This document shows, piece by piece, positions 39,088 through 47,214 of a DNA stretch of 64,000 bases. The notes below the pieces were generated by a model, which saw only the letters and a program-made list of their open reading frames with translations, was not told where the DNA came from and ran no database searches. Location of the stretch: NCBI GenBank assembly GCA_963747935.1, contig CAVVGY010000006.1:105161-169160 (forward strand), written 5' to 3'. Each line of letters opens with the position of its first letter. Positions within the stretch are counted from its first letter, which is position 1. The translations under genes were made by a program, and so were the position numbers. The DNA comes from an uncultured Thermoleophilia bacterium. GTDB lineage: Bacteria; Actinomycetota; Thermoleophilia; UBA2241.

Positions 39088-42000
39088 CTACCGCAGCAGG
39101 CAACCCTCAGCCTGCAGGTACTCCTGCCACTCGGCCTCGCTGGGCTCGCCGCACTTCTTGAGCAGCTTCTCCCACTCGCGGTCCACCCAGGCCTCGAGGT
39201 TGAGCAGGATCTCCTCGTTGCCGGGCTTGAACAGGTGCGCGAACCGCCCCTGCTTCTTGAGCCAGGGGATGAGCGGCTTCTTGTAGCGCGGCCGGTAGGT
39301 CAGGCTGTACTCGCCGTCCACTACCTCGAACAACGGCCAGTAGCACGTCTCGACGGCCTCACGCGCGAGGGCGATCGTCTCCGCGCCGTCCGCGCGCCAG
39401 CCGCGGGGGCAGGGCGCCAGCACGTTGATGAACGTGGCGCCCGGCGTGTCCAGGGCCTTGGCCGACTTGCGCACGAGGTCGCGCGGGTCGTGCGGCGAGG
39501 CCTGGGCCACGTAGCCCAGCTCGTGGGCGATCATGATGTCGGTGAGGTTCTTGCGGTTCTGCAGCTTGCCCGCCTGCGCCTTGCCCACCGGGCTGGTGGT
39601 GGTCCAGGCGCCCTGCGGCGTCGCGCCGGAGCGCTGGAACCCGGTGTTCATGTAGGCGCCGTTGTCGTAGCAGACATAGAGCATCTGGTGGCCGCGCTCC
39701 ATGGCGCCGGAGAGCGACTGCAGGCCGATGTCGTAGGTGCCGCCGTCGCCGCCGAAGGCGATGAACTTGGTGTTCTCCTCGACGAGGCCCTTCTTCTTGA
39801 GGGCCCGGAACGCGGTCTCGACGCCGGAGAGGGTCGCGGCCGAGTTCTCGAAGGCGGTGTGGATGTAGCTGCCCTTCCACGAGGTGTACGGGTAGATGGT
39901 GGTGCTCACCTCGAGGCAGCCGGTCGCCGCGGAGACGACGATCGGGTCTTCTGTGCCCATGAGGATCTGGCGCACCGCCACCGGGGCGCCGCAACCGGCG
40001 CACATACGGTGGCCGCCGGCCAGTTCGCTGCCCTTGGAGACGAGTTCGCGCCACTTGGTGCGCGCGTCCTCGAAGTGGTTGGTCTCCTTGAGCGCGTCCA
40101 CCGGGCACACGTCCACGCACTCGTGGCACATGATGCAGCGGCTCTCGTCGATACGGTACGAGGCCAGGTCGCGCTCGTTGAAGGTGAGCGCGCCGGTGGG
40201 GCAGGCTGGTGACGCAGCGGCCGCAGCTGATGCAGTCGGCCAGCTGGAGGGCGTCGCTGTAGGGCGTGTCGACGTTGATGGTGAAGCCCCGGCCCGTGAA
40301 GTCGTAGCAGGCCGGGCCGGCCACGTCGCGGCACACGCGCACGCACTTGCCGCAGGCGATGCAGCGGCTCATGTCGCGGCGGATGAACGGATGCTCGGTC
40401 TGCGGCTCGACCTGGCGGACCATGTTGCCCTTCACGACCAGCTCGTTGTCGGTGACGTCGTACTCGACGCCGAGCTTCTGCAGGTCGCAGGCGCCGTTGC
40501 TCGGGCACTCGCACTGCAGGCAGCGGCTCGCCTCCGCACGCGCGGCGGCGAGGCTGTAGCCCTTCTCGACCTCGAGGTCGGTGGCCGTGAGGCGCTTCTG
40601 CTTGCCGACCTTGGGCATGGTGGCGCGAGGGGCAGGTTCTGCGCTCGCGCCCATCTTGAGCCACACCGGGCTGCGCTCGGCCAGCCGCTCGCCGAGCTCG
40701 CCGAGCTGCGCCTCGTCGGCGAGCTGGTCGAGGTACGGCAGGCTGTTGAACACGGCGAGCCGCTCCTCGAGCTGCTCGAGGTCCTGGCCGCCCAGCCACG
40801 CGTCGACGGCGAGCGCGGTGCGCTTGCCGCCGGCCACCGCGTGGATGACCGACTGGGAGCCGGTGACGGCGTCGCCGGCCGCGAACACGCCCTGTTCGGG
40901 CGTGCGGCCGGTGTAGTAGTTGCCGAGCAGCCGGGAGTCGGCCAGCGGCAGGTAGTCGGCACTCTCGCCCAGGCGCGGCGCGAAGCCGGTGGCCATGACG
41001 ACCGTGGTGGCGGCGAGCTCGAAGCGCGAGCCGCGGACCTCCTTGCGACGGCCCTTCTCGCGCACCACGCGGACGCACTCCACGCCCTGCGCCTTGCCGC
41101 TCTTGGTCTTGATCTTCTTGGCGAGCGCGCCGTACTCGACCTTGACGCCCTCCTCGAGGGCGGCGGCGAGGTCGCGGGCGCCGGCCGGGATGTCGTCGGC
41201 CTCGTGCTGGGCGATGACGACGACCTCTTTGGCGCCCTTGCGGCGCGCCGTGCGGGCCACGTCGAACGCCGTGATGCCGTCGCCGATCACGGCGACCTTC
41301 TGGGTGAACTTGACGGCACGGCCCTCGCGCACGCGCTTGAGGAGCTCCATGCCGTTCACCGCGACGTCGTCGCCGGGCAGCACGTGCCGCGGCTCCTCCC
41401 AGGTACCGACGCTGATGATCACGGCGTCGATGCCGGCGTCGAACAGGCCGTCGGGGTCGACCTCGTAGCCGAGCTCGGACTCGCCGACGAACCGCGCGCC
41501 GGCGTCCCACAGCGGGGCGAGCTCCTTCTCCACGACCTTGCCGGGCAGCCGGAACTCGGGGATGCTGTAGCGCAACGTCCCGCCCGGCTCCTCGTTGGCG
41601 TCGTAGACGGTGACCTCGTGGCCGGCCTGGATGAGGAACCAGGCGGCGGCCAGACCGGCCGGGCCCGCGCCGATGACGGCGACCCGCCGGCCGGTGGGCA
41701 CGCCCGGCACCAGCAGCGTCTCGCTGTGGTCGGCGGCCGCCCGGTGCAGGGCGCAGATGGCGATGGGCTCGTCCACGTCGCTGCGGCGGCACACGGGCTC
41801 GCAGTAGCGCGGGCACACGCGCCCGAGGATGCCGGGGAACGGCAGCTCGTCGCGCACGATGCCGGCCGCGCCGACGGCGTCTCCCGACGCCAGCGCGGCC
41901 ATGTACGCCGGGATGTCGATGTGCGTGGGGCACGCGTGCGAGCACGGCGCCTCGCAGTACGCGTTGTGGTCCGAGAGGTACATCTTGAGGTAGCTCTCGC

Positions 42001-42268
42001 GGCGCGCGCGTACTCGCTTGGTGTCGGTCTTGACGTTCAGACCGTCCTTGACCCACGTGGTGCAGGCGGCCTGGAGCTTGTCGAGGCCTTCGACCTCGAC
42101 CATGCACAGGCGGCAGGCGCCCCACGCGGCCATGCCCTCCTGGTGGCAGAGCGCGGGGATGTCGATACCCTCACGCCGCGCCACGTCGAGCACGGTCTCG
42201 CCCTCGCGGGCGTTGAGCTGGCGGCCGTCGACCGTGAGCTGGACGGCGGTCTTGGTGCGGGGGCTCAC
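39088..42268 (-). CDS. Fusion protein: [2Fe-2S] NuoG-N-terminal-like + GltD/NfnB-like NAD(P)H-FAD domain + [4Fe-4S] motifs + TPP-binding 2-oxoacid:ferredoxin oxidoreductase beta subunit (PorB); one frame break near 40207
   Basis: GTG 42268 follows GAAGGGAGG and overlaps the NuoF-like stop. Motifs in order: LTVDGRQLNAREGETVLDVA...CRLCMVEV; NAYCEAPCSHACPTHIDIP...FPGILGRVCPRYCEPVCRR; VAVIGAGPAGLAAAWFL; CIACGKCVRVC; CISCGRCVTS|CPTGAL (frame break); CIMCHECVDVCP; then PorB GGHRMCAGCGAP...FGGDGGTYDIGLQS...YDNGAYMNTG. Length is 3n+1. Confidence 0.8.
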
Positions 42269-46219: not shown

Positions 46220-46609
46220 TCACTCCTTCTTGTCGATCTGCATGACGATGGCCTTGGTGGGGCACTCCTTGGCGCAGATGCCGCAGCCCTTGCAGTGCTC
46301 GAGGTCGATGCCGGTCGCCTTGTTGTCCTCGACGACGATCGAGGCGTCGGGGCAGTAGAAGTAGCAGAGCATGCAGCCGTCGCACTTCTCCACGTCGATC
46401 TCGGGGACGAGCGAGCGCCAGCCTCCGGTCTCGTTGTAGACGGAGTTGCCGGCCTCGATGATCGTGGCGCCGAGCTCGTGGCGCTCAGGGCCCCACTGGT
46501 CGACGTCGCTGATGTCCCAGGTCGGCTTCTTCTTGGCGGGCGCTTTGCGCGCCGCAGGCTTCTTGAGCGGCGCCGGCTTCTTGGCGCCTGCCTTCTTGTC
46601 CACGGTCAT
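46220..46609 (-). CDS. porD: 2-oxoacid:ferredoxin oxidoreductase delta subunit (2x[4Fe-4S])
   Basis: CDGCMLCYFYCPD and CKGCGICAKECP motifs, with a Lys/Ala-rich N-terminal extension. Confidence 0.9.
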   Translation of the reverse strand: MTVDKKAGAKKPAPLKKPAARKAPAKKKPTWDISDVDQWGPERHELGATIIEAGNSVYNETGGWRSLVPEIDVEKCDGCMLCYFYCPDASIVVEDNKATGIDLEHCKGCGICAKECPTKAIVMQIDKKE

Positions 46610-47214
46610 TCGCCCTGGACCTCCTCGTAGCTGCGCGTGATGGCGGCGATGTTGCCCTCGACGACCTTGGGCGGGAACTTCTTGCCGAAGTCCTCGCGCA
46701 GGAACGTGACGACGTCATCGATGTCGAACAGTCCGGTGATGCGCGTGAGCGCGCCGACCATCGGCGTGTTGGGGATGGGGCGCTTGATGGTCTCCACGGC
46801 GATGCGCGTGGCGGCGATGGTGTACAGCCGGCCGTGCTCGAGCGCCGAGTCCTTGCGAAGCTGGGCCGGGGAGCGCTCGCTGTTGACGAGCACGATGACG
46901 TCGTCGGGCGCGCCCTTGGTGACGTCGACGATCTTGAGCAGGGAGGAGTCGAGCACGACCACGATCTGCGGGTGCTCGATGCCCGAGTACACCTGGATCG
47001 GCGCGTCGCTGACGCGCGTGAACGCGACGATCGGCGCGCCGGAGCGCTCGGGACCGTACTCGGGGAAGGCCTGGAAGTACTTGCCCTCGCCCAGCGCGAG
47101 CTCCGCGACCATCTTGGCCGCGGTCACGGCGCCCTGCCCGCCGCGGCCGTGCCAGCGGATCTCGGTGAGGGCCGGGGTGGCCTCCGCCTTGTTCTTGCCG
47201 GTCTTCGTCGCCAT
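46606..47214 (-). CDS. porG: 2-oxoacid:ferredoxin oxidoreductase gamma subunit
   Basis: IRWHGRGGQGAVTAAKMVAELALGEGKYFQAFPEYGPERSGAP. ATG 47214 follows GGAGAGGAG; the alternative GTG 47220 overlaps the recR stop. Confidence 0.9.
   Translation of the reverse strand: MATKTGKNKAEATPALTEIRWHGRGGQGAVTAAKMVAELALGEGKYFQAFPEYGPERSGAPIVAFTRVSDAPIQVYSGIEHPQIVVVLDSSLLKIVDVTKGAPDDVIVLVNSERSPAQLRKDSALEHGRLYTIAATRIAVETIKRPIPNTPMVGALTRITGLFDIDDVVTFLREDFGKKFPPKVVEGNIAAITRSYEEVQGE

Follow-up and report, generated by a model that had tools for sequence, protein, structure and literature searches.

An actinobacterial operon predicted to join a pyruvate oxidoreductase to an NfnABC-type flavin module through a PorB-BfuA fusion

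The operon

We analyzed a 64,000-nucleotide (nt) stretch of contig CAVVGY010000006.1 from an uncultured Thermoleophilia bacterium, here called the window. Six tightly packed coding regions occupy its minus strand from 47214 to 39088 (Table 1). Based on their Pfam and NCBIfam domain content, these encode three subunits of a 2-oxoacid:ferredoxin oxidoreductase (POR), namely PorG, PorD, and PorA; two subunits of a Bfu-type flavin module, the NuoE-like BfuC and the NuoF-like BfuB; and a fusion protein in which a BfuA subunit is continued by the remaining POR subunit, PorB. Long spurious open reading frames are common in the window because of its G+C content of ~70%, and frames were therefore judged by content. 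The six genes and their domains are those that a previous reading of the DNA (the initial annotation) had proposed, and the junctions to which it drew attention are present in the sequence: The GTG start codon of the fusion gene lies over the stop codon of bfuB (GTGA, 42265-42268), and bfuC meets bfuB at TGAcATG (44184-44188). The porD and porG genes overlap by 4 nt. For porG, there is an alternative GTG start at 47220 that overlaps the stop codon of recR; in a 93%-identical relative, a porG orthologue of 202 amino acids (aa) stands immediately after recR.

A hairpin had also been reported after the last gene, and RNA folding recovers it. It starts 41 nt past the stop codon of the fusion gene, in a region with a z-score of -3.95 versus shuffles, and was missed by a consensus terminator scan because it has no T run or U tail. 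The fusion gene itself does not form the single frame of roughly 1060 codons that had been described. At 3181 nt, the interval 42268..39088 does not hold a whole number of codons, and the reading frame switches at ~40204. We consider this break most likely to be an assembly indel rather than biology (see below). Residue numbers of the fusion protein refer to the reconstructed 1059-aa sequence, with the break mended, which was also the query for homologue searches.

Table 1. Features of the window, with positions, strand, and the evidence for each assignment.
Feature	Position	Strand	Evidence
porG, POR gamma subunit, 202 aa	46606..47214	-	Pfam POR, E = 1.3e-38; NCBIfam PorC_KorC, 204 bits (cutoff 81)
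porD, POR delta subunit, 2x[4Fe-4S], Lys/Ala/Pro-rich N-terminal tail	46220..46609	-	Pfam Fer4 dicluster; NCBIfam PorD_KorD, 93.8 bits (cutoff 60)
porA, POR alpha subunit, 400 aa	45015..46217	-	Pfam POR_N, 6.5e-71, and PFOR_II, 3e-30; NCBIfam PorA_Arch, 2.6e-146 (under equivalog cutoff)
bfuC, NuoE-like [2Fe-2S] subunit with N-terminal extension	44186..45004	-	Pfam 2Fe-2S_thioredx, 6e-41
bfuB, NuoF-like FMN/NAD(H) subunit, bifurcating type	42265..44184	-	Pfam; full-length PDB matches
bfuA part of the fusion gene, 688 codons, GTG start, ends ...CISCGRCVTS	40205..42268	-	Pfam Fer2_4, Fer4_20, Pyr_redox_2, Fer4_Nqo3; PDB NfnA/StnC
Frame break in the fusion gene, one extra base within GTCACCAGC-C-TGCCCC	40203..40209	-	Reading frames; DNA of relatives
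Second part of the fusion gene, 371 codons: NuoI-like C-terminal half-motif, then complete PorB	39088..40203	-	Pfam TPP_enzyme_C, 5.7e-18; PDB 9bt4_C, 2.4e-79; NCBIfam PorB PRK11865, 4.9e-106
Terminator-like hairpin, 15 perfect bp, UUCG loop, no U tail	39014..39047	-	RNA folding
GltD-like gene, hdrA, mvhD (FlpD), metV, metF, hdrC, hdrB cluster	8476-16248	-	Fer4_20 and Pyr_redox_2 (GltD-like gene)
Flavodoxin-domain gene after the hdr-met cluster	7628-8371		
Hydantoinase/oxoprolinase A and B gene pair	19886-23717	-	
Pat-like ADP-forming acyl-CoA synthetase/GNAT protein (CoA-binding, ATP-grasp, and GNAT domains, 912 aa), AMP-forming acetyl-CoA synthetase, flanking PASTA-domain Ser/Thr kinase	57135-63516		

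The flavin head and its fusion to PorB

All of the clusters and domains by which BfuA, BfuB, and BfuC are recognized in sequence (Schut et al. 2022; Li et al. 2025) are present in the operon. Residues 9-695 of the fusion protein align end to end with residues 4-672 of NfnA/StnC, with matches in the Protein Data Bank (PDB) to NfnA of Caldicellulosiruptor saccharolyticus (9bov_A, E = 2e-129), StnC of Sporomusa ovata (8oh5_C, 5e-117), and a further NfnA (9n5u_A, 1.5e-107). This BfuA part comprises a [2Fe-2S] domain (Fer2_4), two [4Fe-4S] clusters (Fer4_20), a GltD-like flavin adenine dinucleotide (FAD) domain (Pyr_redox_2), and a NuoG-like [4Fe-4S] domain (Fer4_Nqo3); the cysteine ligands of the A1 [2Fe-2S] cluster and of the NuoG-like clusters are invariant in the family. 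PorB begins exactly where the FdhF/MopB-like domain of NfnA/StnC begins. In StnC, that FdhF-like domain, together with its clusters C1 and C2, has been described as a branch without catalytic activity, a "non-functional evolutionary remnant" through which the tetramer forms (PMC10482914). In FeFe-Bfu, a catalytic domain occupies the corresponding position of BfuA (PMC9304861). Family-wide, all iron-sulfur (Fe-S) cysteines are invariant, as are the FAD GxGxxG motif, the GDG...N motif for thiamine pyrophosphate (TPP), and the cysteines of the PorB cluster.

BfuB is of the type found in bifurcating enzymes. Its residues 38-625 match bifurcating B subunits with E values of 1e-237 to 1e-192, among them HydB of NiFe type (7t2r_B, 7.5e-237), HydB (8a6t_B), NfnB (9bov_B), and StnB (8oh5_B), whereas the non-bifurcating Nqo1/NuoF proteins cover residues 158-561 only. 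In addition to Complex1_51K (2.5e-43) and the NADH_4Fe-4S domain of the B1 cluster (1.6e-32), it keeps two domains that are absent from plain NuoF, namely an N-terminal thioredoxin-like four-cysteine domain (2Fe-2S_thioredx, residues 36-111) and a C-terminal domain with 2x[4Fe-4S] (B3/B4; Fer4, residues 572-624). The assignment of the NuoE/NuoF/GltD-like trio to the NfnABC/StnABC (Bfu) type in the initial annotation is borne out by these matches and by those of the fusion protein.

In BfuC, the NuoE-like [2Fe-2S] domain (residues ~137-272) follows an N-terminal extension of ~135 aa. Residues 120-273 match NfnC, StnA, and HydC in the PDB (E = 5e-39 to 3e-33), and the C1 [2Fe-2S] ligands C193, C198, C234, and C238 are invariant. 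The extension has eight cysteines (C54, C57, C60, C64, C68, C74, C100, and C106), which are kept in 55 to 63 of 67 homologues and in A2. C68, C74, C100, and C106 are conserved in the POR-linked family and absent from a Nuo-linked relative described below; these four may bind an additional metal or cluster that is peculiar to the POR complex. The gene had been described as a ferredoxin-NuoE fusion. The NuoE part of that description stands, but the supposed ferredoxin part corresponds more closely to the N-terminal half of NuoI.

The POR part

All four POR functions are present: an alpha subunit with POR_N and PFOR_II domains, a beta subunit with TPP_enzyme_C and a four-cysteine cluster, a gamma subunit with a POR domain, and a delta subunit with 2x[4Fe-4S]. 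The gamma and delta subfamily models exceed their NCBIfam cutoffs. PorB corresponds to residues 748-1029 of the fusion protein, which match a solved PorB (9bt4_C); its TPP motif (G841-D-G843...N869) and cluster cysteines (C756, C759, C784, and C953) are invariant. Rather than standing free, the beta subunit is fused to BfuA; its coding sequence comes after bfuC and bfuB and so is not contiguous with the other por genes. The 2-oxoacid substrate is probably pyruvate.

A divided NuoI and a complex I-type sister operon

The 50 residues that link the NuoG-like clusters to PorB (…DESRCIMCHECVDVCPVDALKETNHFE…) carry a CxxCxxCxxxCP motif, with cysteines C711, C714, C717, and C721. Fusion residues 697-748 match positions 69-120 of the NuoI model (E = 5.9e-14). 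The preceding part of NuoI is found in the extension of BfuC, where residues 31-73 match NuoI positions 22-63 and include the first half-motif (C54, C57, C60, and C64). When the two halves are joined artificially, they match NuoI positions 22-120 in one stretch (E = 3.6e-23; 81.5 bits, cutoff 113). NuoI itself is a single polypeptide with two CxxCxxCxxxCP motifs; here the homologous sequence is spread over two proteins, one part in BfuC and the other in the fusion.

The closest unfused relative of the fusion protein, P0244, has 816 aa and 43% identity over residues 3-733, and it ends just past the NuoI-like motif. It is encoded in two metagenomes of the Joint Genome Institute (JGI; 3300035696 and 3300033755) at loci L082 (1466-12432) and L083, in an operon ordered nuoA-B-C-D-H-E-F-G-J-K-L-M-N. 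A separate nuoI is absent from this operon as well; its NuoE-like protein opens with a clear NuoI N-terminal half, and the joined halves reach 108 bits against the NuoI cutoff of 113. P0244, the NuoG-like protein, also carries a GltD-like FAD insertion. The NuoF-like protein of the same operon is of Bfu type, with the extra cluster domains, and is 67% identical to BfuB of the window, nearer than any solved Bfu B subunit. Our literature search found no description of a "Nuo-Bfu" variant of this type. By analogy, the NuoI-like pair would join the NuoG-like chain to its partner, which is NuoB/D in the sister operon and PorB here. It is the complex I homology of this pair, not a measured distance, that suggests an electrical connection between POR and the flavin head, with POR at the end of the chain.

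Conservation and distribution

Intact fusions of 1006-1085 aa make up more than 110 protein clusters, with 60-93% identity to the query at full coverage. A scan of one genome per species detected 130 encoding loci, nearly all of them in metagenome-assembled genomes (MAGs) of uncultured Thermoleophilia, Gaiellales, and other Actinomycetota. The sources of these MAGs are soil, peat, lake sediment, permafrost, and anaerobic reactors. The order porG-porD-porA-bfuC-bfuB-fusion is found at every locus with enough upstream DNA to be informative (61 of 61), and the flanking contexts differ. When clustered at 50% identity, all full-length fusions fall into one cluster (representative P0104). The next relatives have no more than 45% identity and match only residues 8 to ~720. 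Because the full-length proteins form one cluster and the next relatives match the N-terminal part only, the fusion is, on sequence evidence, a lineage-specific invention and not an artefact.

Schut et al. (2022) cautioned that adjacency in Bfu gene clusters in general need not mean one enzyme (PMC9304861), and it could thus be argued that an independent POR and an independent NfnABC-like enzyme are merely adjacent here, or that the locus is a chimera. We give this explanation almost no credence. Independent assemblies yield the covalent fusion in more than 110 protein clusters, and the gene order is identical at all 61 loci, which rules out an assembly chimera. Furthermore, bfuC and bfuB sit between porA and porB, and the two halves of NuoI are divided over BfuC and the fusion protein.

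Two additional observations concern the distribution of the operon. One MAG has two full six-gene operons (L030 and L035) on the same 3.56-Mb contig (CAVZIK010000006.1), ~2.5 Mb apart; their fusion proteins share 69% (P0041) and 68% (P0072) identity with the query. A 5-kb contig labeled "Deltaproteobacteria bacterium" (L080, JBLMXT010000207.1) carries a fusion that is 93% identical to the Thermoleophilia sequence; the label is probably a binning error.

The frame break

In the sense direction, one frame is read from 42268 to 40205, where it ends in ...CISCGRCVTS, and a different frame is read from 40203 to the stop codon at 39088, beginning CPTGALTFNERDL... and continuing through CPTGALTF into PorB. 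The break falls inside the motif C-I-[ST]-C-G-R-C-V-x-x-C-P-T-G-A, which is invariant and unbroken in the intact homologous proteins. Comparison of the DNA with that of relatives shows that the extra base is absent, as a 1-nt gap that leaves the gene in frame, from 76 of the 79. Across the 8.7-kb operon, the extra base near 40204 is the sole uncompensated indel that recurs in every pairwise comparison. The window contains another break of this kind. Its hdrA-like gene (12155-14627, minus strand) is frameshifted at ~14195 (14190-14200), right after ...SYIKEDP, by an extra base in the context GACCCG-C-ATCACC, and the upstream frame remains stop-free until 13242. A frame-plot heuristic for further frameshifts, based on G+C at third codon positions, is noisy, and only the hdrA case was confirmed, by translation. 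It is because 76 of 79 relatives lack the base, and because hdrA is frameshifted in the same window, that we favor an assembly indel.

The break could instead be real, in which case the fusion gene would be a recent pseudogene, or would have been secondarily divided to give a shortened BfuA and a separate PorB starting from ATG 40131. The extra base is, after all, present in the window sequence, and in the PorB frame this ATG is the earliest start codon. A second MAG (L056) also has a +1 shift no more than 8 nt from the site, at about 11063-11070 (GTCACC-GTCGTGCCCC). We nevertheless regard a real break as improbable. Besides the in-frame relatives and the separately frameshifted hdrA, a start at ATG 40131 would cut the conserved CxxCxxCxxxCP motif, and BfuA as sequenced would run on into 282 GC-rich nonsense codons, ending at 39359. 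The ratio of nonsynonymous to synonymous substitution rates (dN/dS) in the PorB part past the break (0.11-0.23) equals that of the part upstream (0.16-0.22). Frameshifts also occur at scattered positions along the fusion gene in eight other long-read-style MAGs, all of the "MFD" series (L056, L023, L044, L055, L061, L062, L066, and L071), and those in "MFD" contigs may reflect context-specific consensus error. Programmed frameshifting was ruled out, since there is no slippery sequence, relatives at 93% nt identity are in frame, and the frameshifts of the other MAGs are scattered.

The GltD-like FAD domain

The nucleotide port of the GltD-like domain was assessed against an empirical signature for the reduced form of nicotinamide adenine dinucleotide phosphate (NADPH). 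We defined this signature from the three solved, NADPH-using NfnA/StnC chains as GGGNTAMD...YRR[ST]xxEMPA; residue-level contacts to the NADPH 2'-phosphate were not found stated in the NfnABC/Stn cryo-electron microscopy (cryo-EM) papers. We take YRR to be the 2'-phosphate contact in the GltD/NfnB family. The corresponding sequence in the window is GDGITAFD...AQHEADDIPA, and the signature is thus not kept. Among 109 family members, the first glycine is invariant, the second (G331) is 82% conserved and replaced by N, S, or D in ~18%, and the positions of YRR are variable ([AST][RPQ][H…]). Nowhere in the protein is conservation lower than in the NAD(P)H subdomain, whose mean column identity is 0.43; the linker reaches 0.57 and the remaining domains 0.58-0.82. 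Conservation of the FAD GxGxxG motif stands at 98-100%. The Nuo-linked relative has the same GDG variant and likewise lacks YRR. NADPH specificity of the port is therefore not supported by these motifs, and the "NADPH-driven" activity proposed in the initial annotation is not sustained. The port may use NADH, or it may be weak or vestigial.

Comparison with known systems

The operon shares with NfnABC/StnABC (C. saccharolyticus, 9bov; S. ovata, 8oh5; Thermococcus sibiricus, 9n5u) the same three-subunit head and the same layout of BfuA. It differs from these enzymes in having a NuoI-like half-motif and PorB in place of their C-terminal FdhF/MopB-like domain, in the loss of the NADPH signature, and in the ~135-aa Fe-S extension of BfuC. 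It also has six genes, including porG, porD, and porA, rather than three.

An association of POR with a Bfu head was predicted by Schut et al. (2022) from 12 sequences of Chloroflexi and Proteobacteria, with Dehalococcoides mccartyi 195 and syntrophic Proteobacteria as examples (PMC9304861). This Por-Bfu was described as having seven separate subunits (A-G) and a small Type 2 BfuA without A3/A5 and with no catalytic or flavin domain, and its BfuB corresponds to clades 35, 44, and 45 of the published tree (PMC9304861). Shared with the operon described here are the clustering of bfuABC with four POR functions and the same proposed reaction between pyruvate/acetyl-coenzyme A (acetyl-CoA) + CO2 and NAD(H) + ferredoxin. 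The present operon is distinguished by its six genes, its NfnA-like FAD-bearing BfuA, the covalently fused PorB, the split NuoI, and its actinobacterial lineage. Our literature search found no description of an Nfn-type FAD-bearing BfuA fused to PorB, of a split NuoI, or of an actinobacterial family; in Merino et al. (2020), por, nuo, and gltD appear solely as gene abbreviations in a figure legend. Por-Bfu is mentioned as a prediction, and the search found no characterized or purified enzyme. The statement in the initial annotation that no characterized enzyme has this architecture thus agrees with the literature, with the qualification that the POR-BfuABC concept itself is not new, having been predicted in 2022 (PMC9304861). 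In sum, a POR hard-wired to a Bfu head is an existing and still hypothetical proposal, and what is new is the variant, with its PorB fused covalently to an Nfn-type BfuA.

With the peripheral arm of complex I (NuoE/F/G/I) and with "Nuo-Bfu," the operon has in common the order of the wire: flavin mononucleotide (FMN), [4Fe-4S], [2Fe-2S], NuoG clusters, NuoI pair, and partner. The partner here is PorB/POR, not NuoB/D and a membrane arm, and there are no membrane subunits. In comparison to four-subunit PorABDG enzymes (e.g., PDB 9bt4), all four functions are present with intact cofactor motifs, but the predicted electron partner is the attached Fe-S/flavin module, not only free ferredoxin. There is also a resemblance to PadEFGHI, the phenylglyoxylate:acceptor oxidoreductase that reduces NAD+: Fusion residues 716-1034 match positions 123-432 of the PadI model, although far under the family cutoff. 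Pad and the eukaryotic pyruvate:NADP+ oxidoreductase (PNO) are both 2-oxoacid oxidoreductases coupled directly to a flavoprotein that reduces pyridine nucleotides, which in PNO is a flavin domain of the P450-reductase type. To our knowledge, neither has NuoE/NuoF-type (Bfu) subunits.

Proposed mechanism and competing explanations

We lean toward the view that the operon encodes one complex, in which a POR of the four-subunit type, most likely acting on pyruvate, is hard-wired into a Bfu-type flavin head, and that the frame break is an assembly indel. The grounds for a single complex are the fusion of PorB to BfuA and the NuoI-like bridge that is split between two subunits. Electrons from TPP would enter the PorB/PorD clusters, pass through the NuoI-like pair and the NuoG-like clusters to the [2Fe-2S] cluster, and then reach the B1-FMN-C1 site of BfuBC, where NAD+ would be reduced. 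Ferredoxin would also be reduced, via the C-terminal clusters of BfuB, and the GltD-like FAD domain would form a side port on the chain, of uncertain nucleotide specificity. The whole reaction would be reversible in principle and matches the Por-Bfu reaction of Schut et al. (2022; PMC9304861). Structures of NfnABC show a flavobicluster with a low-potential exit from C1 through B3/B4 to ferredoxin (PMC11829005). PorB is attached elsewhere, at the end of the NuoG/NuoI-like main chain, where Bfu enzymes carry their third-substrate domain and complex I has NuoB. By this analogy, its placement would argue against POR as a low-potential acceptor that replaces ferredoxin.

Several points weigh against our preferred interpretation. 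The fusion gene is disrupted in the window as sequenced. The best NCBIfam "pyruvate synthase" models for PorA and PorB score under their equivalog cutoffs (487 versus 550 and 354 versus 405, respectively). The AlphaFold 2 (AF2) model of the BfuC extension is not confident (predicted local distance difference test, <50), which is unsurprising because a half-domain requires its partner and Fe-S clusters. The thermodynamic need for a Bfu core is also unclear, given that pyruvate is at about -500 mV and that reduction of NAD+ and ferredoxin is exergonic uncoupled (PMC9304861). Moreover, the FAD domain could short-circuit pyruvate electrons to pyridine nucleotide.

This energetic argument is also part of the case for the strongest functional rival, a 2-oxoacid:NAD(P)+ oxidoreductase that does not bifurcate and would resemble Pad or PNO, in which the Fe-S wire would lead to FMN and/or FAD and ferredoxin would be optional. 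Consistent with such an enzyme are NCBIfam matches to the phenylglyoxylate dehydrogenase subunits PadG, PadI, PadE, and PadF, of which the PadI match begins inside the Fe-S extension before PorB, and the complex I-type wire of the sister complex. Pad itself reportedly contains a GltD-like FAD subunit. The Pad scores are, however, all far under their cutoffs (e.g., 222 versus 700 bits), and BfuB retains both the thioredoxin-like and the 2x[4Fe-4S] domains that mark bifurcating B subunits (PMC9304861). For Wor-Bfu, tight coupling to ferredoxin has been shown. We therefore judge a non-bifurcating enzyme to be rather unlikely. The initial annotation had proposed, as one of two options, a different mechanism, in which the GltD-like FAD takes electrons from NADPH and BfuBC bifurcates them, with NAD+ as the high-potential and POR as the low-potential acceptor, allowing pyruvate to be made from acetyl-CoA and CO2 without free ferredoxin. 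In its favor are a thermodynamic analogy with the Nfn reaction and the presence of an NfnA-like FAD domain. BfuC, which carries the gating C1 cluster, is also tied through its N-terminal extension to the POR-proximal NuoI-like module, and the window has genes for MetFV-Hdr and acetyl-CoA synthetase. Nonetheless, we rank this mechanism low, because POR would be on the main chain and the NADPH signature is missing: PorB would be on the third-substrate, mid-potential side rather than at the low-potential exit, and the residues common to the three solved chains are replaced. The low conservation of the NAD(P)H subdomain also counts against it, as do the ferredoxin-type C-terminal clusters that BfuB keeps. 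This wiring topology makes a ferredoxin-free, NADPH-driven pyruvate synthase a poor candidate.

A more ambitious version of the single hard-wired complex deserves mention, even if we find it doubtful. The complex may be a four-port redox hub on a complex I-type wire, with ports at TPP for pyruvate/acetyl-CoA + CO2, at FMN for NAD(H), and at a functional FAD for another pyridine nucleotide, plus a ferredoxin site, all coupled through one bifurcating flavobicluster. If so, carbon would enter or leave at pyruvate in direct balance with the pools of NADH, NAD(P)H, and ferredoxin, which could include ferredoxin-independent, nucleotide-driven synthesis of pyruvate.

Whether catalytic genes beside bfuABC form one enzyme with it is a question explicitly raised by Schut et al. 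(2022; PMC9304861). The PorB-BfuA fusion, along with the shared NuoI-like bridge, is about the strongest genomic evidence possible for a single POR-Bfu complex. This fusion is common in uncultured Thermoleophilia and other Actinomycetota, from anoxic soils among other habitats, and it may determine, at the pyruvate/acetyl-CoA node, the balance that these organisms strike among NADH, NAD(P)H, and ferredoxin. That the same flavin head is plugged into a membrane arm in one operon and into POR in another is a clear case of modular evolution, and it provides a concrete target for expression and cryo-EM.

Other genes in the window

The hdr-met cluster, the flavodoxin-domain gene, the acetyl-CoA synthetase, and the Pat-like protein fit an anaerobe with active acetyl-CoA and C1 metabolism; they do not settle the direction in which the complex would run. 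The stand-alone GltD-like protein of the hdr-met cluster (534 aa; Fer4_20 and Pyr_redox_2) reads GGGDVAFD...INCIEDD and is also without YRR. The arrangement of the Pat-like protein and acetyl-CoA synthetase near the POR operon suggests acetylation-based control of acetate activation. The hydantoinase/oxoprolinase gene pair adjoins genes for a class III aminotransferase (18059-19351) and a LacI-type regulator (16864-17880).

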